Shown piece by piece: positions 2,972 through 23,009 of a stretch of DNA of 31,764 nt. The position numbers and the translations under genes were made by a program. Source of the stretch: a virus (lineage: Duplodnaviria > Heunggongvirae > Uroviricota > Caudoviricetes); the IMG/VR virus record IMGVR_UViG_3300011008_000007, one strand, 5' to 3'. The notes below the pieces were generated by a model that saw nothing but the letters and a program-made list of their open reading frames with translations, was not told the origin of the DNA and made no database searches. The number at the start of each line of letters is the position of its first letter. Within the stretch, counting starts at the first letter, position 1.

Positions 2972-3763
2972 ATGGAAGCAAGGAAAAGAATATATACGAC
3001 GTATTTTGATAATGTAAGAAACTTACCAAACTATATTATTCCAATTTCTATTGCTGGTCGTCCGCCCGCAGATTGGGATGGATTAGAGTATAAAAAATTA
3101 GCTCCAAAGCTGAGCTTCTTTAAAGAATGGGAACATAATAACGATAACAATTTTTATATACAGCACTTTTACAAGGAAGTTCTTGATAAATTAAATCCAG
3201 ATAAAATCGTAGAAGAATTGTTTGAGAAGATAGGCAAAAATAAAGATGCTTCTATCGCATTAATTTGTTACGAAAACCCAAAGGAGTTTTGTCATCGTCA
3301 TTTAGTTGGAAGTTGGCTTATACAGCACGGGTATTTCGTAAAAGAATATGAGGATTTAACAGAACCGATAAAAAGTTTAGAGCAATCAATTCGAGAATCT
3401 TTATTGGAGTGTTTTGAAATTGATGGAAATCAATGTGTCCTTTTTCTTTCTAATATAACTAATTATAAAAAGGTTATTGAATATTTTTTTGATGGATACT
3501 TAGACAGTTATGGTGTCAAAAATTATACTATACATCATAATCAATACAGTTTAGATATTCGATTTGAAAATAAAAGTAGATTTTTTGTTAGTATATTAAA
3601 TGAGAACAGTAAAGGTGCGAGATGGAACAAAATAATTTGTGATAGTTCCATAGACAATTATTTAATAGACACCATAGCGCGCCCATTATTTACTTGGTGT
3701 AGATTGGGTAAACGTAGTGTATATAAAATTAGAAATAATATAATAAAAGTAAAAATCCCATAG
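2972..3763 (+). CDS. DUF488-like N-terminal domain fused to an unknown C-terminal domain
   Basis: IYTTYF...ISIAGRPP...YKKLAP...LICYE.P..FCHRHLV pattern is typical of phage DUF488-family proteins. Confidence 0.7.
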   Translation: MEARKRIYTTYFDNVRNLPNYIIPISIAGRPPADWDGLEYKKLAPKLSFFKEWEHNNDNNFYIQHFYKEVLDKLNPDKIVEELFEKIGKNKDASIALICYENPKEFCHRHLVGSWLIQHGYFVKEYEDLTEPIKSLEQSIRESLLECFEIDGNQCVLFLSNITNYKKVIEYFFDGYLDSYGVKNYTIHHNQYSLDIRFENKSRFFVSILNENSKGARWNKIICDSSIDNYLIDTIARPLFTWCRLGKRSVYKIRNNIIKVKIP

Positions 3764-3782: not shown

Positions 3783-4391
3783 CTATCTTATTCTTTTATA
3801 GTTGAAAATTGCGCGCATATCGTTTTCCCACGCGGTTTTTATATGCCCTTGTTTCCACTTTATATACTGTTTATATCGAATTTTTGAAGCTTCAACAGAC
3901 AAACCAAAACAAAATTGAATATCGCTTGCAGAATGAATATCAAGAATTTCAAATAAAGGGAACGGTGCTAAAAGCTGCGCCGTAAACAAATCAGCTTCGG
4001 ATTCAAAGCCAGATGTATCTAATTTCCAATCTCTGCCCTCTGGAATATGATTAATAGCTTTGCTTTTTAGGTGATTGCATACGATATGCCCCAATTCATG
4101 AGATAGAGTCCAACGTTGCCTGCCCTCATTATACTGAGTATATGAATCGTTATAGAGAATTAAATATCTATCGTTTTCAAGTTCATAATGGGTGCATCCG
4201 GTAAGACTTTCGCAAAGAGCTTCTACATCAGAAATTGAGCAATTATTGAGCTTGGCAAACTCTTGATATGTTATTAGGCGGCAATTTGGAATCAATTTGA
4301 TAATCTTCTTTGGTTCTATTGGGAATTTAATATATGGTAATAGGGAATATGTTTCCAATATTTTTCTTTGAATAAATTGATGTCTTATCAT
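3783..4391 (-). CDS. ImmA/IrrE-family metallopeptidase (DUF955), anti-repressor
   Basis: R.RWTLSHELGH (HExxH) plus ESEADLFTAQLLAP; directly downstream of an XRE gene. Confidence 0.92.
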   Translation of the reverse strand: MIRHQFIQRKILETYSLLPYIKFPIEPKKIIKLIPNCRLITYQEFAKLNNCSISDVEALCESLTGCTHYELENDRYLILYNDSYTQYNEGRQRWTLSHELGHIVCNHLKSKAINHIPEGRDWKLDTSGFESEADLFTAQLLAPFPLFEILDIHSASDIQFCFGLSVEASKIRYKQYIKWKQGHIKTAWENDMRAIFNYKRIR

Positions 4392-4792
4392 TCTTGTTCG
4401 CTAATATCTCCATTCTTAAATGCTTCTTCAAATGCTATATGAAGCATTTCCATCATTCTTTTTCTATCTTTTTCAGGCATATTTCGGCGCGCACGTTGTA
4501 TTGATATAATATCGCTATCCAATTCAATATCGCCCTCAACTTTGCCGGAGTATAAATAGTCAAGTGAAACTCCAAAATAATCGGCAACCAATGCCAATTT
4601 GTCCGCTGAAGGACACGATGTTTTCCACTTGAAAAGATATGAGCGAGAAAATCCGAGTGCCTTTTCAAGCATAACAATACTCATATCGTGTGCGTCGCAC
4701 AGTTCTTTTATGCGGTCATAAACTGTTTTGACACCTTTGTTATTGTTTTCATCATTAAAAACGTCCAGTTCGGAGTTGTGCTTTGTAGTCAT
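4388..4792 (-). CDS. XRE-family HTH repressor (ImmR/CI-like)
   Basis: RIKELC...MSIVMLEKALGFSRSYLFKWKTSCPSADKLALVADYFGVSLDYL is an HTH_3 pattern; GAGG RBS upstream on the minus strand. Confidence 0.92.
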   Translation of the reverse strand: MTTKHNSELDVFNDENNNKGVKTVYDRIKELCDAHDMSIVMLEKALGFSRSYLFKWKTSCPSADKLALVADYFGVSLDYLYSGKVEGDIELDSDIISIQRARRNMPEKDRKRMMEMLHIAFEEAFKNGDISEQE

Positions 4793-4836: not shown

Positions 4837-4915
4837 TCGCAAAATTTTACGATAAAAGTCTTGACTTTCGCAAAATTTTCTGATACAATACATCTATCGA
4901 CAGAAAATCTTGCGA
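4837..4915. promoter_or_regulatory. Three 16-bp quasi-palindromic operators (probable repressor sites)
   Basis: TCGCAAAATTTTACGA (4837-4852), TCGCAAAATTTTCTGA (4868-4883) and TCGCAAGATTTTCTGT (reverse complement of 4900-4915). There is also a half-site in the direct repeat ACTTTCGCAAAA (4802-4813 = 4864-4875). Confidence 0.75.
4861..4889 (+). promoter_or_regulatory. Sigma-A/70 promoter for the RlaP-palm-CCA operon
   Basis: TTGACT-N17-TACAAT with an extended -10 TG at 4881-4882. Confidence 0.8.
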
Positions 4916-4973: not shown

Positions 4974-5990
4974 TTGGAAATTAAAGAGATAAAAGCTGAG
5001 ATTTTGAAAGAAAAGTATGATTTTTTAAGAAATAATGAATTTTTGAGAGGTAATATTATACTTTTAGGTTTGGGCGGAAGTTATGCTTATGGCACAAATA
5101 ATGAAAATTCCGACATTGATATTAGAGGAATCGCAGTTAATTCACTTAGATATTTGTTTACAGGTAAAGATTTTGAACAAGTAGTAGAAACCAATACAGA
5201 TACTACGATATATTCTCTCGAAAAAATGTTTACACTACTATCTTCGTGCAATCCCAATACAATAGAAATACTCGGTTTAAAGCCTGAGCACTATTTATTC
5301 CGTGACATCCCAGGCATACTTCTTCTCGAAAATAAAGAACTATTTTTATCTCGCAGAGCTGCTTTTACCTTTGGTGGTTATGCCAATAGCCAACTTAGAA
5401 GATTAGAAAACAAGGCTGCAAGGGAACAATCTCAGTCGGCACAGGAGCGAAATATTCTTAAAAGTATCGAACACGCACAAGTTGATTTCCATAACAAATA
5501 TCTATATATGCCGGACGATAGTATTAAACTATATGTTGATAAAGCTATCAATGAAGATATGGAAACAGAGATTTTTATGGATGCCAACATTAAACATTAT
5601 CCTTTAAGAGATTATCGCGCAATGTGGAACGAAATGCACGCTATAGTTAAAGGCTATGCCAAATTTGGCAGTAGAAATACAAAGGCGATTGAACACGACA
5701 AACTCGGCAAGCATATGATGCATTTAATTAGGCTATATTATATGTGTTTCGACATTTTAGAGAAGCGTGAAATCAACACATATAGAGAAAAAGAACACGA
5801 TTTTCTTATGGATATTCGTAACGGCAAATATCTCGATAGTAAGAAACAGCCAATACCAGAATTTTATGAGATTGTTGACGGATTAGAAAAAAGGCTCGAT
5901 TATGCGAGCAAAAATACCGATTTACCCGATAGGGTAGATAAAGACAAAATTGATGATTTGTTATATGAAATAAATTGTAGTATTTTATAA
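4974..5990 (+). CDS. Pol-beta-superfamily nucleotidyltransferase, RlaP/Nuc-transf type
   Basis: GGSYAYGTNNENSDIDIRG (GS...DxD), NPNTIEIL and KHMMHLIRL; GGAGG RBS before TTG. Confidence 0.85.
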   Translation: MEIKEIKAEILKEKYDFLRNNEFLRGNIILLGLGGSYAYGTNNENSDIDIRGIAVNSLRYLFTGKDFEQVVETNTDTTIYSLEKMFTLLSSCNPNTIEILGLKPEHYLFRDIPGILLLENKELFLSRRAAFTFGGYANSQLRRLENKAAREQSQSAQERNILKSIEHAQVDFHNKYLYMPDDSIKLYVDKAINEDMETEIFMDANIKHYPLRDYRAMWNEMHAIVKGYAKFGSRNTKAIEHDKLGKHMMHLIRLYYMCFDILEKREINTYREKEHDFLMDIRNGKYLDSKKQPIPEFYEIVDGLEKRLDYASKNTDLPDRVDKDKIDDLLYEINCSIL

Positions 5991-6001: not shown

Positions 6002-6952
6002 ATGAATAGACAGGACGTATTGAAATCATATCATCTTAAAAAAAGATTTTGCAAGGATAATAATTTACCCATTAAGGTGTATGATAATCCGTATTTTGAG
6101 CAGAGGGTAGAGATACTTAATCCTCTGTTTGGTTCTTTAGATAAATTTGATGATTTTGTGCTTAATATGCGCGATTTTGATTCCGAACAGAATTATTTTG
6201 ATTATTATAACTCTATTAAGGATGCCATTATTGACGATATAAAGGCAAATGAAATGTATCAAAAATTTATAAATGAAGATAAAAAACCTTGGGCAGACCA
6301 AATTGTTGAAGCTATCAGCAAAATTGAAAATCGTAATTTATATTCAGACGACAACAATGGTAAGGTTTTCGTATCTGTTGATATGAAAAAAGCCAATTTT
6401 TCGGCGTTGAAGCACTATTCTCCAAGTATTTTTAATGGAGCTGAAACTTGGGAAGATTACCTTAAAAAATACACTTCTTACGACCATATAATAAAGAGCA
6501 AATATATTCGCCAGGTGGTAATGGGAGCTTGTAACCCAAGGGCACAGATTACATATGAAAAATATTTAATAAGCAAACTTTGCGAACATTTAGTGAATGT
6601 ATTGGGCGAAAAAATCAAGGTTCTTTGTTTGGCTGCGGATGAAATTGTGCTTTCCGAAGTTGGATGTAGTTTAAATGAGATAAAGGAAGCCGTTTCTTCG
6701 TGTGCCGACAGTCTTGGAGATTTGGTTCGGATAGAGATATTTGAGTTAAATAAACTCGGTAATTATGGCTGGGAAAAGGTTTTTGATACACCCAATGAGT
6801 GTAATTTTATTTTTAAGGGCGTAGATAGCGAAATTTATCATCAGCTTTTCAAACATCGAATGGGCGAAAAAATCACAGATGACGACCTTGTTTTCGTTCA
6901 TAACGGCAAATTGGCAATGTATTTAGATGAGGTGGATGACCCGTGGATGTAA
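6002..6952 (+). CDS. Hypothetical protein with polymerase palm-like motifs
   Basis: 316-aa ORF with GGAG RBS. Motifs VSVDMKKANF, KYIRQVVMG and LAADEIV occur in PolB motif A/B/C order. The function is inferred. Confidence 0.6.
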   Translation: MNRQDVLKSYHLKKRFCKDNNLPIKVYDNPYFEQRVEILNPLFGSLDKFDDFVLNMRDFDSEQNYFDYYNSIKDAIIDDIKANEMYQKFINEDKKPWADQIVEAISKIENRNLYSDDNNGKVFVSVDMKKANFSALKHYSPSIFNGAETWEDYLKKYTSYDHIIKSKYIRQVVMGACNPRAQITYEKYLISKLCEHLVNVLGEKIKVLCLAADEIVLSEVGCSLNEIKEAVSSCADSLGDLVRIEIFELNKLGNYGWEKVFDTPNECNFIFKGVDSEIYHQLFKHRMGEKITDDDLVFVHNGKLAMYLDEVDDPWM

Positions 6953-8316
6953 AAATTATTTTACCTATGCAAGTTCAGTATATTTTAAATACACTCAATA
7001 ATAACGGTTATGAGGCATACGTGGTTGGTGGATGTGTGCGCGATTCTCTCTTGGGCGTGAACCCAAAGGACTGGGATATTTGCACCTCCGCCAAACCCGA
7101 AGAGATTATTAAAGTATTCAAAGGAAATAAAATTATTCCAACCGGACTCAAACATGGAACGGTCACTTTGGTGATAGGAATTAACCAATATGAGATAACA
7201 ACATATAGAGTTGACGGTTTATATTCGGATGGTAGACATCCCGATAATGTGGAATTTGTATCTAATCTTAAAGAGGATTTATCAAGAAGAGATTTTACAG
7301 TTAATGCTATGGCATATAGCCATACCGAAGGATTAATTGATTTGTTTGGCGGAGAGAATGACCTTAAAAATCGTGCTGTGAGATGCGTAGGCAATGCAAA
7401 AGATAGGTTTTCTGAGGACGCGTTGAGAATGTTAAGGGCTTACCGATTTGCCGCGAAATATAGATTCAATATAGACAATGAAATTACAAATGCGATTGAT
7501 GATTGTCGTGAGTTAATCAAAAACATATCAATTGAAAGAATACAATCCGAAGCCTCACAAATTATTGGAAGATTACATTTAGAAAGAAATGTGTATGTTT
7601 CATCGGATTTTTATGGTGTAAACATTACTCTATTTGATGAGATTATGCTTGGAGTATTGCAATTATTGAGCACTCGCTTAGACATTGATATAGACGGATG
7701 TATATTGGTCGATTTGGTTATGCAGATGGTATATTGTCCTGAATTTATACACGAAAGAGTCGCATATATTCTGCATTATTTGCAACGAAAATCTCAAATT
7801 AAACCAGAAGATATTATAGATAGGTTGAAGGTAAGTAACTATTTTTCGGACTGTGTTCATAAGGTTCTATATGTTGGAGATACAATTATTTCAGAATTTC
7901 CAAATTGGCGAGTTTTAAAAACCGACCGACCCGAAGAATTTGAAAGAAAATCTGTTTCTAAGAATCCAGAACTAAGATACAAAATGCGAAAGTATTTAAG
8001 ATTGATAGGGAATGATAAAGAGCTTTTGCGTAGTGTGTTCAATTATATTCTTGCCATAAATTTTACGGAGTCGGAATTTGCAAAAGATGATATTTTCTTA
8101 GCCAATATATCATTAATGCAGGATAAAATATTTGACTTGTTTGATAATGAGGGAGTGTATGATGTTAAATATTTGGCAGTAAATGGTAATGATATTGCTG
8201 AACTCGGTTATAAAGGCAAGGAAATTGGATGGGCTCTCAACTATCTGTTAGATATGGTTATGAGAGAAAATGTTGTCAATACAAAATCAGAATTACTTGA
8301 ATTTTTGCAGCATTAA
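6943..8316 (+). CDS. cca: CCA-adding enzyme (class II tRNA nucleotidyltransferase)
   Basis: VGGCVRDSLLG..PKDWDI, YEITTYR.DG.YSDGRHP, EDLSRRDFTVNAMA and RFSEDALRMLRAYRF. The HD motif is degenerate (LHYL). Confidence 0.9.
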   Translation: MDVKIILPMQVQYILNTLNNNGYEAYVVGGCVRDSLLGVNPKDWDICTSAKPEEIIKVFKGNKIIPTGLKHGTVTLVIGINQYEITTYRVDGLYSDGRHPDNVEFVSNLKEDLSRRDFTVNAMAYSHTEGLIDLFGGENDLKNRAVRCVGNAKDRFSEDALRMLRAYRFAAKYRFNIDNEITNAIDDCRELIKNISIERIQSEASQIIGRLHLERNVYVSSDFYGVNITLFDEIMLGVLQLLSTRLDIDIDGCILVDLVMQMVYCPEFIHERVAYILHYLQRKSQIKPEDIIDRLKVSNYFSDCVHKVLYVGDTIISEFPNWRVLKTDRPEEFERKSVSKNPELRYKMRKYLRLIGNDKELLRSVFNYILAINFTESEFAKDDIFLANISLMQDKIFDLFDNEGVYDVKYLAVNGNDIAELGYKGKEIGWALNYLLDMVMRENVVNTKSELLEFLQH

Positions 8317-8344: not shown

Positions 8345-8373
8345 TTGACAAGCTTATAAATCGCGTCTATAAT
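8345..8373 (+). promoter_or_regulatory. Perfect-consensus sigma-A/70 promoter for the RNA ligase operon
   Basis: TTGACA (8345-8350)-N17-TATAAT (8368-8373). Confidence 0.9.
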
Positions 8374-8374
8374 A

Positions 8375-8411
8375 GTAGTGTTGAGAGGGGGAAGCCTCTC
8401 ACACTACTTTT
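8375..8411 (+). terminator. Hairpin with T-tract; probable terminator of the upstream operon
   Basis: GTAGTG-T-TGAGAGG / GGGAAG loop / CCTCTCA-CACTAC, then TTTT. Confidence 0.65.
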
Positions 8412-8453: not shown

Positions 8454-9773
8454 ATGTATTGTGCTTATGTAACAACTCTAAAAGAGTTAAGAAAACACAA
8501 TAATGCAGATAGATTGCAATGTGCAACCGTATTCTCTAATAATGTAATTTTAGATTTGAGCTACGCTTCGGGGGATAGAGTAATTTATTTTCCTGTGGAT
8601 GGTCAGCTCGGACAGGAATTTGCAGAAGAGAATAATTTACTCAGAAAGAAAGACGAAAACGGAAATAATATCGGTGGTTATTTAGACCCAAACAAAAGAA
8701 ATATAACGGCTCTCAAATTGAGAGGCGAACAGTCTGATGGTTTGGTTTTGCCGCTATCTGTATTGAGCAAATATGTTGATATTGACACACTTAAAGATGG
8801 CGACCAAATTACTGTATTAAATGGAAATGAGATATGCAGAAAATACATTCCTCGGAGTTCAAACCCACGAAGAAATAATGGTGGTATCTCTAACAAAAAG
8901 AACCACAAAGAAGTAAAAGAAAAGATTTCATATCCATATTTCTTTGAACACGCCGACACCCAACAGTTAGCCTATAACCAAGACAAATTCCGCGAGGGAG
9001 ATATTTGTTACATAACCTTGAAGTGCCACGGAACGAGTGCAAGGACTATGAATGCAGTCGAGGTTACAAAGAAGCATCCAGCCAAAGTGTTAAAGCTATT
9101 TGGCGCCAAAGACAAGGTTTCAAAAACATATAAGATGATTACCGGAACTCGCCGCTGCACTCTTAGAAGTTATGATGGTGGTTTTTATGGCAGCAATGCT
9201 TTTAGAGAGAAATATCATAACCAACTAAAAGACAATCTTCCCAAAGGAATGGAAATCTTTTATGAAATTGTCGGTTGGATAGATAACGACAAGACAATAA
9301 TGGGTAGATGTTCAAACAAGTTGATTAAAGATAAAGAGTTCTCTAAAAAATATGGCGATGAAACAATTTTCTCTTATGGCTGTGAACAGGGCGAAAACGA
9401 TTGCTACGTTTATAGAATGACTATGACAAACGAGGATGGCTATACCGTAGAGATTCCTTGGGAGCAAGTTCAAGTTGAAGCTGACAAGTTGGGTCTGAAA
9501 TGTGTTCCGACTTTTGAAAGGTTTATTTATACAACTTGGGATGACCTTATGGAGAGGGTCGAAAAATACTATGACGGAGAAGACCCAATCGGTAAAACCC
9601 ATATTCGAGAGGGTGTTGTTGTACGAATAGACAACAGACCGAAATTCACGGCTTTTAAACATAAAAACTTTTCTTTCAAATGTCTTGAAGGAATAATCAA
9701 AGACAGTTCGGATTCTCCCGATATTGAAGAAGCAGAGGAATTAATTACAGAAGAGTATAAGGAAGGTGCTTAA
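8454..9773 (+). CDS. ATP-dependent RNA ligase (DRB0094/Rnl2-like, with N-terminal OB-like domain)
   Basis: N-terminal KHNNADRLQ...GDRVIYFP.DGQL; ligase motifs I (TLKCHGTS), III (IFYEIVG), IV (REGVVVR) and V (FKHK). Confidence 0.85.
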   Translation: MYCAYVTTLKELRKHNNADRLQCATVFSNNVILDLSYASGDRVIYFPVDGQLGQEFAEENNLLRKKDENGNNIGGYLDPNKRNITALKLRGEQSDGLVLPLSVLSKYVDIDTLKDGDQITVLNGNEICRKYIPRSSNPRRNNGGISNKKNHKEVKEKISYPYFFEHADTQQLAYNQDKFREGDICYITLKCHGTSARTMNAVEVTKKHPAKVLKLFGAKDKVSKTYKMITGTRRCTLRSYDGGFYGSNAFREKYHNQLKDNLPKGMEIFYEIVGWIDNDKTIMGRCSNKLIKDKEFSKKYGDETIFSYGCEQGENDCYVYRMTMTNEDGYTVEIPWEQVQVEADKLGLKCVPTFERFIYTTWDDLMERVEKYYDGEDPIGKTHIREGVVVRIDNRPKFTAFKHKNFSFKCLEGIIKDSSDSPDIEEAEELITEEYKEGA

Positions 9774-10155
9774 TATGGGATTCCCAAACGAAACACTTAA
9801 AGATAACAGCGCAGAAGAATTTACAGAAAGCGCTAAAAACTTAGACATTGCTGAAAATAAACAGCAGGGTAACAAAGAGAATTTATCTAAAGAACAAGTA
9901 AAAGCAGTAATCGAGAGTTATAAAGAAGTACAGGACGAAATGAGAGAGAAATATAAGGCAAGTATTCCCGAACTTCAAGAAGAATACCGCAGAGGTATTT
10001 CTGTTGGTGCTCAGGCTGCTTGTGAGGTTGTTTTAAAGAAATTAAATAATCGCTCTACTCCGCTAATGACAAAGATTGCAGATATTAAGGCATTTTGTAG
10101 AAGACCTTTCGGACAGGAGCCGGAACAAATTTTGGAGAGTACAGATGATAATTAA
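9766..10155 (+). CDS. Hypothetical protein (paralog of 23675..23917)
   Basis: Co-oriented ORF with overlapping start and stop codons. Confidence 0.7.
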   Translation: MLNMGFPNETLKDNSAEEFTESAKNLDIAENKQQGNKENLSKEQVKAVIESYKEVQDEMREKYKASIPELQEEYRRGISVGAQAACEVVLKKLNNRSTPLMTKIADIKAFCRRPFGQEPEQILESTDDN

Positions 10156-10702
10156 TGACCTGCAAACTGTTAGCGGTCAATATGATTTGATTTATGCAGA
10201 CCCGCCGTGGCGTCAGTCAAAAGGTGGTAAAAAAGCTGTTCGCAAAAATAGTAGTGGCACAAAACTTGATTATCCAACGTGTAGCCTTGAAGAAATCAAA
10301 AATCATATTGCTACTGCCGTAGGTTCGGGGGATAAAAACAAAATCCTCTTCCTATGGACAATAGACAAGTATTTATTTGAAGCACAAGAAATTGCTGAAA
10401 ACCTTGGCTTTAAACTTCACGCAAGAATGATTTGGGATAAAGTTACGGGAATACCAGCGGCATTTACGGTAAGGTATGGGCACGAATATCTGCTTTATAT
10501 GTATAAGGGTAAACTTACTCCTGTGGCGAAAGAAGAGCGTGGCAAGATTCATACGGTTTTCCGCGAAAAAGTTACTAAGCATAGCAAAAAACCCGAAATT
10601 GCTTATGAGATTATCGAAAGGCTATATCCTGACCTCAAAAAGATTGAAATGTACGCTCGAAACGAGAGAAATGGTTGGGATTCTTGGGGAAATGAAATTT
10701 AG
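10145..10702 (+). CDS. MT-A70-family adenine methyltransferase
   Basis: YDLIYADPPW, LFLWT, WDK, HSKKPE and IEMYAR....GWDSWGNE. Start moved to ATG 10145 (GGAG RBS). Confidence 0.9.
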   Translation: MIINDLQTVSGQYDLIYADPPWRQSKGGKKAVRKNSSGTKLDYPTCSLEEIKNHIATAVGSGDKNKILFLWTIDKYLFEAQEIAENLGFKLHARMIWDKVTGIPAAFTVRYGHEYLLYMYKGKLTPVAKEERGKIHTVFREKVTKHSKKPEIAYEIIERLYPDLKKIEMYARNERNGWDSWGNEI

Positions 10703-10794
10703 CTTAAAAAGTGTCATCTGAGTACCAAAAATAGCCTAAAAATGGGGTCTGAGTGTCATTTTTTTATCAAGCGGCAAAAATGGAGGTAATTTTT

Positions 10795-11823
10795 ATGACT
10801 TACGAAAAACACACCTTTATAAAACCCCAAGAATTGAGGGTTTTTGAGAGGCAAAATGACGATAAAACTCCGATTTTATTTACACTAATAGGATTGCCTG
10901 GAAGTGGCAAATCTTATCTTGCTTCAAGGATTGCAATAGGTGACGGCAAGGGCGGGTTCTATTATCCGACTATTCACTCCTCAGACGAACTCAGAAAAGA
11001 ATTATATGGTGACGTTGATGACCAAACGCATAATGCTGAAATCTTTAACGAATTACATAAACGTATTCGCAATGATTTAGTGCGGGGGATGGACACAATT
11101 TACGATGCTACAAATGTCAGCAAAAAGCGTCGTATTGGTTATTTTAGAGAAATCAGTAAAATCAAATGTCGCAAAATTGCAATTGTTACCCTTGCTCCGT
11201 ATGAGGTGTGTCTTAGTCAAAATTTGCAAAGAGAAAAGACCGTGCCGGAATATGTAATTAAAAATATGTATATGCACTGGTGCCCACCTGCACTAAATGA
11301 GGGTTTTGACGAAATCCATTTGTTTTACAACTATGGGGATTTGGATAAGGATTATTATTCTCCGAACAACTTCTTTGAGGGTAGAATCGGTGCTAATTAT
11401 ATAAGCCAAGATAATTCTCATCATACCTTGACAATTGGACAGCATTGTAGCGAAGCAGGTAGATACGCTATCAAGAAATATTCCGATTTGATTTTAGGCT
11501 TGGCGGCACATTTTCACGATATTGGAAAGCCTTTTACGAAAACAAAGCTAAATAAAAAAGGTGAGTTTGACGGTAATTATCATTACTATCAGCACCATTG
11601 TGTTGGAGCTTATGACGTGTTCTTCTATCTTGACCATTTTAGCGAAGAAATGCTTTCACCAAGAGATTTAGTTTACATATCAAATTTGATTTATTATCAT
11701 ATGATGCCTTTTACGAAATGGCGGCAGAGTGAGAAAGCCAAACTAAAAGACAAAAAGCTAATTGGAAACAAAATGTTTACAGATATTATGAGGCTGCACG
11801 AAGCAGACACTTTTGCGCATTAG
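10795..11823 (+). CDS. Polynucleotide kinase-like AAA_33 domain fused to an HD phosphoesterase
   Basis: LIGLPGSGKS, SSDELR and DATN..KKRR; C-terminal FHDIGKP...HH..GAY...YHM...HEAD. Start set at ATG 10795 (GGAGG RBS). Confidence 0.85.
   Translation: MTYEKHTFIKPQELRVFERQNDDKTPILFTLIGLPGSGKSYLASRIAIGDGKGGFYYPTIHSSDELRKELYGDVDDQTHNAEIFNELHKRIRNDLVRGMDTIYDATNVSKKRRIGYFREISKIKCRKIAIVTLAPYEVCLSQNLQREKTVPEYVIKNMYMHWCPPALNEGFDEIHLFYNYGDLDKDYYSPNNFFEGRIGANYISQDNSHHTLTIGQHCSEAGRYAIKKYSDLILGLAAHFHDIGKPFTKTKLNKKGEFDGNYHYYQHHCVGAYDVFFYLDHFSEEMLSPRDLVYISNLIYYHMMPFTKWRQSEKAKLKDKKLIGNKMFTDIMRLHEADTFAH
10862..10879. repeat. ATAAAA-N6-TTTTAT palindrome, copy 1 (intragenic)
   Basis: ATAAAACTCCGATTTTAT. Confidence 0.4.
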
Positions 11824-13532: not shown

Positions 13533-14390
13533 GTGTATTTAAAGAATCCATTTAATTACATTGGCGCAAAATACAAGTTGCTGCCACAAATACTTCCTCT
13601 GTTTCCTTCGGATTGCGAAATTTTTATCGACCTCTTCGGGGGAAGTGGAGAAGTAGCCTTTAATACGCAGGCTAAACAGATAATTTACAATGAAAAATCT
13701 TCTGCTTTGGTTAATATTTTCAATCACTTAGATGACAACTTTTTAAACGAAGTTGAGGACGTTATCTCTAAATGGAAATTAACAAAAACAAGCAAGCAGG
13801 AATTTCTTGGTTTGAGGTCGTATTACAACGAAAACCACAAAAATATGTCAGAACGAGAACAGGCAATTATTTTGTATTGCCTATTAACGCACGCATTTAA
13901 TTATCAAATCGCCTTTAATTCTAAGGGTGAATACAATATGCCTTCGGGTGCCGGCAGAAGTTATTTCAGTCCGCAGCTTAAAAAGAAATTGCAAGATTAC
14001 ATACGTCGAAAACAGGATATTAATATTGAATTTCAATCAAATGATTTTGTAGATTTTTCGATTGATAAATATCCGCCAGATAAAACTTTTATTTATGTTG
14101 ACCCACCTTATTTAATTACAGTTGGAGCATACGAAAGAGATTATTTCTGCAAATGGTCTGAGGATTATGAACATAAGCTATTGGCATATCTCGACGAACT
14201 TAATGAAAGAGGATATAAATTTGCTCTTTCCAATGTCTTAGAGCACAAAGGCAAAACCAATGAAATCTTAAAAGAATGGGCTCAAAAATATAAAGTCCAC
14301 TATATGAACATTGATTATAAAAACTGTAATTATCACACCAAAGATAAGTCTGCAAATAGCAGCACAGAAGTGTTGATAACAAATTATTAA
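13533..14390 (+). CDS. D12-class N6-adenine DNA methyltransferase (Dam-like)
   Basis: NYIGAKYKLLPQI, FIDLFGGSG, IYNE and FIYVDPPY; GGAGG RBS. Confidence 0.92.
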   Translation: MYLKNPFNYIGAKYKLLPQILPLFPSDCEIFIDLFGGSGEVAFNTQAKQIIYNEKSSALVNIFNHLDDNFLNEVEDVISKWKLTKTSKQEFLGLRSYYNENHKNMSEREQAIILYCLLTHAFNYQIAFNSKGEYNMPSGAGRSYFSPQLKKKLQDYIRRKQDINIEFQSNDFVDFSIDKYPPDKTFIYVDPPYLITVGAYERDYFCKWSEDYEHKLLAYLDELNERGYKFALSNVLEHKGKTNEILKEWAQKYKVHYMNIDYKNCNYHTKDKSANSSTEVLITNY

Positions 14391-19934: not shown

Positions 19935-22900
19935 ATGTACCACAATTATCATAAACACGACCATTATGGTAATCCTTGGGTAATGGATGTTGCCGTTAAA
20001 CCGAGAGATTATTGCCAAAGAGCAGTAGAGCTGGGACATAAAACTGTATTCACAACCAATCACGGAGTAACGGGAAATATTTTTGAGTGGTTAGAATTAT
20101 CCAAAGAATATGGGCTCAAAATGGTTTATGGTACTGAGGCATATTATGTCGATAATTTTGAAGAAAAAGAAAGAGGCAGACACCTAATTGTTATTGCAAA
20201 AAACAACGATGGAGTTATGCAGCTAAATGACATAATGAGCTCGGCGCATATGGAAGGATTTTATTATGTGCCGCGAATAAACAGAGAACTCTTATTTTCC
20301 TTAGAACCCAAAAATTTCGTGGTTACTTCGGCTTGCGTTGCAGGTATTTGGCAAGATAGAGAACTACTATTAGCCCTAAACCAAAAATTCAAAGGCAACT
20401 TTTTCTTAGAGTTGCAAAATCATAACTTTGCTTTACAAAAGGAATTAAATAAAGAACTACTTGCTTTATGTCAAGTAGCCCACATACCGATTATTCACGC
20501 AAACGATAGTCATTATATATCTCCAAGCGATACAAAGTATCGAGATATTCTTCTTACTGCTAAGGGTCATAAATATGACAATGAGGATGAGATGATTCTT
20601 GATTATCCGAGTGAAGATGAAATATATCGTAGATATGAAAAACAAGGGATTTTGACAAGGGCGCAAGTTGCCGAAGCATTAGAAAATACTAATATTTTTG
20701 ATGAATGTGAATCAATAACCCTTATTAACGATGATATTAAGTTGCCATCGGTAGCCGATAATCCAACCAAAGCATTATTAGATTTAATAAGAGGGCAATG
20801 GGAGATAGAAAAACACAATATCCCTAAATCCAAATGGAAAGAATATGAGGATGCAATTAATTATGAGTTCAAAATAATAAGAGATACTCATATGGAAAAC
20901 TATTTTTTAATTGACTATATCGTTGCTAAAAATGGTCAAGAAAAATATGGCGGCAAATTGACAAATACCGGTCGCGGCAGCGCCCCCTCTTTTTATACAA
21001 CAAAATTACTTGGACTAACTGATATTGACCGCATTAGCGCGCCGATTACGTTATTCCCAACGAGATTTATGTCTGTTGAAAGAATTTTGGGTTCGCGCAG
21101 CCTCCCCGACATCGACCTAAATATGGCAGATAGAGAACCGTTCATAAAAGCAACAGAAGATTTGCTCGGAAAAGAAAATTGTGCTTGGATGCTAACTTGG
21201 AAACCCCTACAGGATTCTTCTGCATTTAGAGTTTATTGTAAGGGTATAGGAAAAGATATTAGCGAATATGATGAAGTTGCAAAAAATCTAAGTGCATATG
21301 AAGACGATAAAAAATGGGCACCGATTATAGAAGAAAGCAAGATTTTGCGTGGTGTTATCGAAAGTGTGTCGGAGTCGCCTTGTTCTATGTTGTTATACTA
21401 CAAGCCTGTACGCCAAGAACTTGGCTTGGTTAGAACTAATGCGGGAGTATATTGCTGTCTTTTAGATGGTATCAATTGCGATAAATACAAATATCTAAAA
21501 AATGATTATCTCTCGGTTACTGTTTGGTCGATTATCCGCTCTGTCTGTGAATTAGCCGAAATACCAATTCCTACTATTCGAGAATTAGATAAATTGCTTG
21601 ATGACAAGGCTTTTGAAATATACGAAAAAGGTTTGACGTGTACCATAAATCAAGCTGATAGTGACTTCGCAACAGAATTAGTTAAACGATATAAACCCAA
21701 AAGTGTGTCTGAAATGTCGGCTTTTGTGGCAATTATAAGACCTGGATGTGCAAAGTTATTACAAGATTTTGTTGATAGAAAGCCTTATACAACAGGAGTT
21801 GCTGCCTTGGATGAACTTCTTATCGAGGGCAACCACAGAATGATTTATCAAGAATTGATAATGAAATATTTGATTTGGCTTGGAATACCAGAAACAGGTT
21901 CATACGACATCATCAAAAAGATTTCTAAAAAGAAGTTTAAAGAGGCAGAACTTACGGATTTGCGAAAAAAGTTGGCTAAAGGCTGGCTAAGGCAGGTTCA
22001 AACAAGTGAAGGATTTGAGGGTACTTGGGCGATAGTTCAAGACGCGGCAAGATATTCTTTTAACTCGTCGCATTCCCTATCTTATGCTTACGATAGCCTA
22101 TATGGTGCCTATTTGAAATCGCATTATCCTCTTGAATACTATACGGTTGCTTTAAACTATTATAGTGACGATTCCGAACGCACATTAAAACTTACTAATG
22201 AGCTAAGTTATTTTGGTATTTCATTAAAACCAATCAAATTTAGATATTCAAAAGGCGATTATACATTATTCAGAGAAGAAAACAGCATATATAAAGGTAT
22301 TCAAAGTATTAAAGATATGAATGCCAAAGTAGCAGATGATATATATGGGTTTAGAAACAATACATACAATAACTTTACTAAGTTATTAACAGATATTAAT
22401 GAAAAAACCACAGCAAATTCAAAGCAAATAAAAATCTTAATTGAATTAGATTTTTTTGAAGAGTTCGGAGAATCCAATAAATTGTTATCAATTTTCGAGT
22501 TCTACCACAAATACAAAAAGCGTACCACATTAAAAAAAGAAGAATTAACAAATTCATTCATAACCCTTGATGATGTGAGAGAGTGTTCCGGCAAAGAAAC
22601 GGACAAGCAATTTTCACAGGTTGATTTTACAAAATTACTTTCTTTGGTGGAAAACAAAATTCCTTATAAACCCAAAAACAACATAGATAAAATCAAAGCG
22701 CAAATTCAGTATTTAGGATATGTAGATTTTGAACCAAACCCAAACTATAAGGGTTTATTGGCTACACTTGAAGTTGATACTAAATATTCTCCTAAACTCA
22801 AAATGTACTCTTTAAAGACGGGCAAAACTTTGGATTTCAAAATCAATAAGAGAACATTTAAAAAGAATCCAATTGAAAAGGGAGACGTTATCTTAGTTCA

Positions 22901-23009
22901 AGGACACAAAGTTGAACCGAGAAAGAAAATGATAGATGGCAAATTTGTGTCAATACCAGGAACTTCCGAGAGATGGATTACTCAATATAAAAAGGTTGAT
23001 TCAATATGA
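19935..23009 (+). CDS. dnaE: DNA polymerase III alpha subunit (C-family, DnaE type)
   Basis: PHP domain (HKH, TNHG, GTEAY, NDSHY), GRGSA, PDID, FN.SH...Y and C-terminal OB. Confidence 0.92.
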   Translation: MYHNYHKHDHYGNPWVMDVAVKPRDYCQRAVELGHKTVFTTNHGVTGNIFEWLELSKEYGLKMVYGTEAYYVDNFEEKERGRHLIVIAKNNDGVMQLNDIMSSAHMEGFYYVPRINRELLFSLEPKNFVVTSACVAGIWQDRELLLALNQKFKGNFFLELQNHNFALQKELNKELLALCQVAHIPIIHANDSHYISPSDTKYRDILLTAKGHKYDNEDEMILDYPSEDEIYRRYEKQGILTRAQVAEALENTNIFDECESITLINDDIKLPSVADNPTKALLDLIRGQWEIEKHNIPKSKWKEYEDAINYEFKIIRDTHMENYFLIDYIVAKNGQEKYGGKLTNTGRGSAPSFYTTKLLGLTDIDRISAPITLFPTRFMSVERILGSRSLPDIDLNMADREPFIKATEDLLGKENCAWMLTWKPLQDSSAFRVYCKGIGKDISEYDEVAKNLSAYEDDKKWAPIIEESKILRGVIESVSESPCSMLLYYKPVRQELGLVRTNAGVYCCLLDGINCDKYKYLKNDYLSVTVWSIIRSVCELAEIPIPTIRELDKLLDDKAFEIYEKGLTCTINQADSDFATELVKRYKPKSVSEMSAFVAIIRPGCAKLLQDFVDRKPYTTGVAALDELLIEGNHRMIYQELIMKYLIWLGIPETGSYDIIKKISKKKFKEAELTDLRKKLAKGWLRQVQTSEGFEGTWAIVQDAARYSFNSSHSLSYAYDSLYGAYLKSHYPLEYYTVALNYYSDDSERTLKLTNELSYFGISLKPIKFRYSKGDYTLFREENSIYKGIQSIKDMNAKVADDIYGFRNNTYNNFTKLLTDINEKTTANSKQIKILIELDFFEEFGESNKLLSIFEFYHKYKKRTTLKKEELTNSFITLDDVRECSGKETDKQFSQVDFTKLLSLVENKIPYKPKNNIDKIKAQIQYLGYVDFEPNPNYKGLLATLEVDTKYSPKLKMYSLKTGKTLDFKINKRTFKKNPIEKGDVILVQGHKVEPRKKMIDGKFVSIPGTSERWITQYKKVDSI

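Follow-up and report, generated by a model that had tools for sequence, protein, structure and literature searches.

The window studied here is a 31,764-nucleotide stretch of phage DNA (Caudoviricetes; IMG/VR record IMGVR_UViG_3300011008_000007), whose gene at 6002-6952, placed between the genes for the nucleotidyltransferase RlaP and for the CCA-adding tRNA nucleotidyltransferase (CCA enzyme), encodes a protein of 316 amino acids (aa) that we call X. X is predicted to fold as a minimal right-hand polymerase, its candidate catalytic residues are kept throughout a large family without annotation, and the family is linked in operons with enzymes that repair RNA ends. We consider it probable that X is an active nucleotidyltransferase. 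That it acts on RNA ends in repair is, in our judgment, an evenly balanced matter, and the reading that we favor as a whole, in which X is a catalytically active minimal right-hand polymerase extending damaged 3' ends of tRNA or tRNA-like RNA together with RlaP and the CCA enzyme, stands about as good a chance of being right as of being wrong. A preliminary description of this DNA had singled out the open reading frame (ORF) as an unannotated palm enzyme wedged between RlaP and CCA. Results showed that the ORF is real and that X has no significant match in Pfam, PHROGs, NCBIfam, PADLOC or the PDB sequences, searched both with the single protein and with profiles.

The palm fold proposed in that description was borne out by an AlphaFold2 model built from an alignment of 46 sequences (predicted local distance difference test [pLDDT] 96, predicted template modeling score [pTM] 0.89), which matched polymerase folds in a structural search. 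In the model, residues 1-105 are helical and a strand at 121-128, ending at D127, is followed by a helix at 131-139. A helical insertion of about 75 residues, reaching up to residue 204 and holding S166-K167-Y-I-R170 with a helix at 167-176, is predicted to separate this strand 1 from a beta-hairpin (strands 206-210 and 214-218) with D213-E214 at its turn. Two helices and three strands would come after the hairpin, the last strand (269-272) ending at K272, and the modeled chain closes with a short C-terminal tail that contains D295. X has no exonuclease domain, as had been claimed: residues 1-120 are all-helical, and about 40 residues after the palm are what is left of a thumb.

By definition, a palm of the RNA recognition motif (RRM) type has its metal ligands where strand 1 ends and on the beta2-beta3 hairpin, with fingers inserted after strand 1 (PMC7824862), and the modeled topology of X agrees with such a palm carrying a fingers module after strand 1. 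Judged from the model, X would be the core of a right-hand polymerase, leaning toward family B in its overall architecture. The best structural matches were all DNA polymerases; family B gave the longest alignments, while scores for family A (PolA) tied with those for family B (PolB). Because the structural scores are modest and tied, membership of X in a superfamily is not established. The PolB label first attached to X is too strong: the spacing from K167 to G175 is that of PolB motif B and the longest structural alignments are with PolB, but no sequence model matches, motif C has DE in place of DTD and PolA scores equally well. Sequence profiles gave no support for a bona fide PolB (PF00136/PF03175), since neither X nor 70 divergent members of its family matched DNA_pol_B or DNA_pol_B_2 at E <= 1 and no PDB polymerase was retrieved by phmmer or by profile.

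Conservation was followed in 70 representatives of the family with 28-48% identity to X, in addition to the earlier alignment of 46 sequences. The three strings on which the preliminary description had built, VSVDMKKANF (124-133), KYIRQVVMG (167-175) and LAADEIV (210-216), are present as quoted, and the motifs to which they belong (A, B-like and C) are invariant or nearly so in both alignments. E214 and D295 are kept in all 70 representatives, D213 and N132 in 69, and D127, S166, K167, R170 and K272 in 68 each; G175 follows with 66 and F133 with 65. The acidic residues D127 and D213-E214, picked out in the preliminary description, are thus kept in 68 to 70 of 70 divergent homologs, and in the model they fall at the end of strand 1 and on the beta2-beta3 hairpin, where two-metal right-hand polymerases in general carry family-wide conserved carboxylates. 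Two members depart from this pattern and are apparently inactivated paralogs, namely P0147 (D127A, K167D, R170Q, D213N) and P0224 (D127R, N132D). Both have lost several of the residues jointly, which is expected if these residues build one active site.

The fifth residue after the motif A aspartate (D+5) is the steric-gate position in family A (Klenow E710), family B (RB69 Y416, KOD Y409) and reverse transcriptases (HIV Y115), and a bulky residue there keeps ribonucleotides out of DNA polymerases and reverse transcriptases. In X the corresponding residue would be N132. An invariant Asn at D+5 would not exclude the 2'-OH, which fits a use of ribonucleoside triphosphates (rNTPs) by X.

The gene neighborhood of X was surveyed in 116 loci from viral contigs, prokaryote genomes and assemblies, in which ORFs were called and iterated profile searches were run. 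Of the 111 loci whose flank is intact, 90 carry RlaP directly upstream on the same strand (25/34 clusters at 70% identity). Among all 116 loci there are 92 cases of adjacency, and in 88 of these RlaP comes within 20 nt of X or overlaps it, the overlaps being perhaps overestimated since every ORF was taken to begin at its first in-frame start. The CCA enzyme is directly downstream in 76 of 110 loci (21/35 clusters at 70% identity and 4/9 at 50%). In a maximum-likelihood tree of 96 distinct X sequences, adjacency to both RlaP and CCA occurs in the two deep halves (split 100/97), with several losses. An RNA ligase (Rnl) follows X in two loci that have neither RlaP nor CCA (L091, L094). The linkage to RlaP, CCA and Rnl predicted at the outset therefore holds broadly, and X shows the conserved operonic association with RNA-end repair enzymes that marks an RlaP-type RNA-repair module. 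In phages L081, L087 and L100, where no RlaP adjoins X, RlaP is found about 40 kb away on the same contig.

Two remote homologs, each with 32% identity to X, have neighborhoods of their own. P0177 stands in the order RlaP-X-SmpB (L120, 4971-7413), with a phage SmpB, the partner of transfer-messenger RNA, in the slot usually held by CCA; SmpB does not recur downstream of X in the sampled loci, where the genes found in place of CCA vary. P0233 stands in the order RlaP-X-CCA(HD)-Macro, and some way beyond Macro comes a "Swiss-army-knife" phosphatase, HAD_SAK_2 (L122, 1279-7365); this locus is a fuller RNA end-healing cassette around a remote X homolog. A gene of 377-379 aa upstream of X (L081-L089, L100) was considered as a diverged RlaP and rejected (hhalign probability 0.1%); it belongs to phrog_6077, a family of unknown function. 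No fusion of X to RlaP or to CCA was seen among the surveyed loci, and a prediction of the RlaP-X complex (score 0.00) gave no answer and speaks neither for nor against binding. Counts for polynucleotide kinase (PNK)-like genes in this survey were discarded, the profile having drifted onto the CCA protein.

What X would add to such an operon can be seen from RlaP itself. RlaP adds 1-2 nucleoside monophosphates to the 3'-OH ends of RNA, not of DNA, without a template, and its authors note that most products would bear the wrong base (preprint 10.64898/2025.12.29.696909). An enzyme that is untemplated, adds 1-2 nt and is often wrong leaves a gap for a templated partner. We propose that X serves the early RNA-repair operon of the phage beside RlaP and the CCA enzyme, and that it is built from a palm into which short fingers are inserted, together with a helical N-terminal part and a vestigial thumb. 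D127, at the end of palm strand 1, would form a two-metal site with D213-E214 on the beta2-beta3 hairpin, and K167 and R170 on the fingers helix would bind the triphosphate of the incoming nucleotide. When a host nuclease trims the 3' end of a tRNA into the acceptor stem, X would refill the paired positions with the 5' strand as template, after which RlaP would supply the unpaired discriminator base and then the CCA enzyme the CCA; internal breaks would be sealed by Rnl and PNK. The scheme would be the 3'-end mirror image of the 5'-end repair carried out by Thg1-like enzymes. Templated fill-in of the acceptor stem is a tentative proposal, with the chances clearly against it. We are equally reserved about its widest form, which is possible and rather doubtful, namely that X is an RNA-templated RNA polymerase of PolA/PolB-type right-hand descent, making with RlaP and CCA a complete three-enzyme pathway for tRNA 3' ends shared by large phages and giant viruses, and thus a candidate for the long-sought type of enzyme that edits tRNA 3' ends by template.

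Several results weigh against a role of X in RNA repair. At 50% identity just 5 of 10 clusters have RlaP upstream, so that the linkage is not universal, and the locus sample, fetched via motif patterns, comes predominantly from phages of gut Clostridia. X also stands alone, both in Lachnospiraceae chromosomes, beside rlmH (L109), a DUF1256 gene or a HEC-01 pair (L108), and in jumbo phages, as in Salicola SCTP-2 and in a 413-kb contig with unrelated neighbors (L008). The extensions of those longer X members that were scanned gave no Pfam domain, R3H included. The equivalence of N132 with a steric gate and the juxtaposition of D127, D213 and E214 are drawn from secondary structure and motif spacing. 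Finally, the closest structural relatives of X are DNA polymerases and its Medusavirus homolog is named a DEDDy exonuclease, both of which would suit a DNA enzyme equally well.

These last points lead to the alternative that X is a small DNA-dependent DNA polymerase for repair, gap filling or recombination-dependent synthesis, the adjacency to RlaP and CCA reflecting the layout of an early operon and not a shared chemistry. We regard this as unlikely. Besides the top structural matches, all of them DNA polymerases, it has on its side the standalone copies in bacterial chromosomes, a jumbo-phage copy beside genes for a nucleoside deoxyribosyltransferase and a 5'-3' deoxyribonucleotidase, the 695-aa Medusavirus structural homolog whose name refers to a 3'-5' exonuclease, the classic proofreading partner, and the precedent of extra, non-replicative divergent polymerases in phages (divPolA1, divPolA2; PMC11348598). 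Layout by itself would not lead one to expect that the RlaP-X-CCA order, which is tight and probably brings translational coupling, persists on either side of the deepest split of the tree and in homologs of as little as 32% identity, nor would it predict RNA-specific neighbors such as SmpB, Macro, HAD_SAK_2 and Rnl. RlaP is moreover inactive on DNA (preprint 10.64898/2025.12.29.696909), X carries Asn where DNA polymerases have Tyr, Phe or Glu at the steric-gate position, and its vestigial thumb suits a short fill-in better than the synthesis of duplex DNA.

The same active-site residues bear on the idea that X is a non-catalytic protein with a polymerase fold, like the herpesvirus UL8, which binds RNA and positions or regulates RlaP, the CCA enzyme or both. 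A scaffold would not be expected to conserve D, DE, K, R and N so strictly, every candidate catalytic residue is retained in 68 to 70 of the 70 divergent members, and the two exceptions lose residues jointly; this idea seems to us quite improbable. The preliminary description had leaned toward a Thg1-like enzyme adding nucleotides in the 3'-5' direction at tRNA 5' ends, and the palm fold, a D...DE acidic pattern resembling that of Thg1 and the tRNA-repair context do agree with it. This comparison was not supported: in the model X has an insertion with a K/R fingers helix between strand 1 and the hairpin, as 5'-3' right-hand polymerases do, no Thg1 chain is among the 50 structural matches listed, and PF04446 matches neither X nor any of the 70 divergent members. 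In addition, 3 of 5 X-bearing phage records contain, away from X, a true Thg1-like gene (PF04446, E 1e-28 to 1e-32) by which that role is already filled, so that X is no substitute for Thg1 and the Thg1-like reading becomes highly improbable. We give hardly any credence to the view that X acts like GGDEF or Cas10-type palm enzymes and synthesizes small nucleotides, cyclic or linear oligonucleotides that would serve as signal or decoy, instead of repairing RNA. GGDEF proteins do appear among the structural matches, but they span about 115 residues of bare palm and rank below all polymerases; X lacks the GG[DE]EF motif (AADEI, consensus SNDEI), is polymerase-like over its whole length and has no PADLOC match.

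X belongs to a large family. A word-indexed search found 231 homologs; with HMMER, searched exhaustively, the number rose to 1,407 representatives of clusters at 50% identity, of which 992 matched at E <= 1e-10. The members occur in large phages, prophages and some bacteria, are nearly all 300-330 aa long, have no Pfam domain and bear the sole label "hypothetical protein". When the 70 divergent members were scanned one by one there was no significant Pfam match, the only repeated weak matches being to IMS (in 3, best E 0.021) with RVT_1 in 1, neither of them significant; the proteins listed by an alignment-profile search with the family were likewise all unnamed and without domains. Longer forms also exist. 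A 499-aa X in Lachnospiraceae genomes (L114 and L116, 9395-10894) has a 200-aa N-terminal extension of no recognizable family, which in L114 had no informative Atlas neighbor, and P0150 (496 aa) is longer at its C terminus by about 190 aa, to which no family was assigned.

Two of the standalone loci are of interest in their own right. On a 172-kb contig of an uncultured Lachnospiraceae metagenome-assembled genome (L108, 8144-10933), X comes right after a HEC-01 candidate defense pair, made of an AAA_21 ATPase (PADLOC E 1e-168) and a DUF4276 protein (E 8e-61). On the 413-kb contig (L008, 7001-12472), the genes after X are one resembling a 5'-3' deoxyribonucleotidase and a nicotinamide adenine dinucleotide (NAD)-salvage cluster (NUDIX/NrtR, isochorismatase, NMNAT-like, NAPRTase), with no RlaP or CCA nearby.

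In the window itself (Table 1), the ATG of the X gene begins 11 nt past the RlaP stop codon, and AGGAGA, a strong Shine-Dalgarno site, precedes it by 8 nt. The stop codon of X is at 6950-6952, and the overlap with the start of cca noted in the preliminary description amounts to 10 bp if the GTG at 6943 is the start; the alternative ATG at 6967 would leave a 14-nt gap. The M78 plus helix-turn-helix (HTH) pair upstream of the operon also precedes RlaP-X in L005/L006 and X in L091. Promoter-like sites before RlaP are as numerous as expected from shuffled sequence, so that the one tabulated is weak evidence. The DnaE replicase noted in the preliminary description was confirmed, and the window additionally encodes DnaB and a primase. 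With these three replication proteins of its own, the phage does not need X for replication. No tRNA genes were found in the window.

Table 1. Features of the window discussed in the text, with the X gene and its motifs first.
Feature	Position	Strand	Remarks
X gene	6002..6952	+	316-aa minimal right-hand-polymerase-like protein; ATG start
Motif A region, residues 121-134 KVFVSVDMKKANFS	6362..6403	+	D127 at predicted end of palm strand 1; N132 at D+5
Motif B-like fingers helix, residues 166-179 SKYIRQVVMGACNP	6497..6538	+	K167, R170 candidate triphosphate ligands
Motif C beta-hairpin, residues 206-218 KVLCLAADEIVLS	6617..6655	+	D213-E214 at predicted turn
C-terminal conserved K272 (strand 269-272) and D295 (DDLVF)	6815..6886	+	noted for conservation
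RlaP gene	4974..5990	+	PF10127 E 1.2e-17; phrog_388 E 5.9e-52
CCA-adding tRNA nucleotidyltransferase	6943..8316	+	PolyA_pol E 9.8e-38, PolyA_pol_RNAbd, tRNA_NucTran2_2; phrog_2244 E 2e-61; overlaps X end
ATP-dependent RNA ligase (Rnl), N-terminal PHA02142 OB domain	8454..9773	+	PF09414, PF21189; phrog_968 E 9e-70
Polynucleotide-kinase-like P-loop kinase (AAA_33)	10753..11823	+	PF13671 E 1.9e-15; phrog_505 polynucleotide kinase E 2e-10
ImmA-like metalloprotease (3783-4391) and XRE-type repressor (4388-4792)	3783..4792	-	phrog_87/phrog_1914 and phrog_8; divergent, directly upstream of operon
Promoter-like site TTGACT-17-TACAAT with TG, intergenic before RlaP	4861..4889	+	consensus scan alone; weak evidence
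DnaE-type replicase	19935-23009		phrog_405 E 3e-225; Pol III alpha in PDB E 8e-48

Other features of the window deserve mention. The gap between the CCA and ligase genes holds a perfect sigma-70 consensus (TTGACA-17-TATAAT, 12/12) with a GC-rich hairpin at most 9 nt further on (8345-8401, + strand), which may give the RNA ligase a promoter of its own or a regulatory leader. A PurZ-like adenylosuccinate synthetase homolog is encoded at 612-1802 (+; phrog_1211 "2-aminooxy adenylosuccinate synthetase" E 3e-51, PF00709 E 9e-30), and the phage may make 2-aminoadenine (Z) DNA with a DnaE-type replicase instead of DpoZ or PrimPol; the adjoining ORFs of 159 and 200 aa match no family, and no MazZ or DatZ was identified. 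A 263-aa protein (2972-3763, +) has an N-terminal DUF488-N3a domain (E 7e-12; phrog_2450) and a C-terminal half without assignment, and in L003, too, a DUF488-N3a gene precedes RlaP-X-CCA by a few kb. Within 12 kb, the + strand has three genes for DNA methyltransferases (2503-2970, phrog_67; 10076-10702, MT-A70; 13533-14390, phrog_56), interspersed among the RNA-repair genes, likewise in the relatives L001, L003 and L005.

If active, X would stand for a new family of right-hand polymerases that are very small (about 310 aa) and widespread, with some 1,400 clusters at 50% identity and structural relatives in giant viruses. The RNA-end nucleotidyltransferases reported in a survey of jumbo phages are RlaP, the CCA-adding enzyme and Thg1 (PMC7824862), and an active X would be the fourth nucleotide-adding enzyme of RNA repair besides these. 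It could also fill the need seen from the RlaP preprint, that faithful restoration requires a templated enzyme. Moreover, an active X would show how small a polymerase core can be and still function, making it a good model, and it might serve as a tool for extending RNA 3' ends. It would further indicate that attacks by hosts on acceptor stems or 3' ends of tRNA are so frequent that phages keep a dedicated rebuilding kit right behind the lysis-lysogeny switch.

The fold of X is of a known kind. In the literature that we searched, Burroughs and Aravind 2016 not being covered, we found no description of the X family, of how minimal its members are or of the fixed place that they take in RNA-repair operons. 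Family B polymerases (KOD/Tgo, RB69 gp43, the Pol alpha core, E. coli Pol II) measure 750-1200 aa against the 316 of X, which has neither their exonuclease nor their N-terminal domains, a thumb of about 40 residues and far shorter fingers. From PolB motif A (DxxSLYPS, with its Tyr gate), X (DMKKANFS) keeps the Asp and has Asn at D+5 in 69 of 70 members; from motif B (KxxxNSxYG), KYIRQVVMG keeps K and G at the same spacing with N replaced by Q and Y by F, L or M; in motif C, YGDTDS contrasts with AADEI (consensus SNDEI), that is, DE and no DTD. With family A (Klenow, T7 DNAP, Pol nu) and the T7-like RNA polymerases only residues 91-263 of X align, its N-terminal region is unlike the PolA thumb, and DYSQIELR, RxxxKxxxFxxxYG and any PF00476 match are missing. 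X recalls divPolA2 (PMC11348598; AUR84708), which is also an extra, non-replicative polymerase-like protein without exonuclease and thumb in phages that have their own replicase, and for which roles as repair or RNA polymerases were proposed; its predicted structure combines a palm with a novel globular domain at the N terminus. As a divPolA2, X was rejected on sequence against AUR84708 (hhalign probability 0.2%, E 0.25; BLASTP best E 0.66).

Outside phages, uncharacterized proteins of giant viruses are the nearest relatives of X as judged from the structural models. Full-length structural homologs come from Klosneuvirus (A0A1V0SKG9), Barrevirus, Tupanvirus, Pandoravirus and Medusavirus (A0A3T1CWG1), with template modeling (TM) scores by query of 0.57-0.80, E 3e-16 to 8e-8, 13-26% identity and lengths of 268-695 aa. 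Some are labeled as R3H-domain protein (A0A1V0SKG9) or DEDDy exonuclease, extra domains that are known from entry names and lengths only; R3H is a binder of single-stranded nucleic acids.

Among RNA-repair systems, X resembles Thg1 and the Thg1-like proteins (TLPs) in being a palm enzyme within phage tRNA-repair gene sets, and the templated repair of acceptor-stem ends by TLPs is the functional analog that we propose for it. Unlike X, Thg1 polymerizes in the 3'-5' direction on the 5' end and has no fingers insertion. Published descriptions of RlaP systems, as far as they were accessible, include no palm polymerase of the X type. In composition, with RlaP, CCA, Rnl and a PNK-like kinase, the module around X is of the same kind as the known RlaP RNA-repair systems (PF10127), such as RtcB-RlaP-RtcA of Pseudomonas, NrdC.11 of T4 and the repertoires of jumbo phages (PMC7824862).

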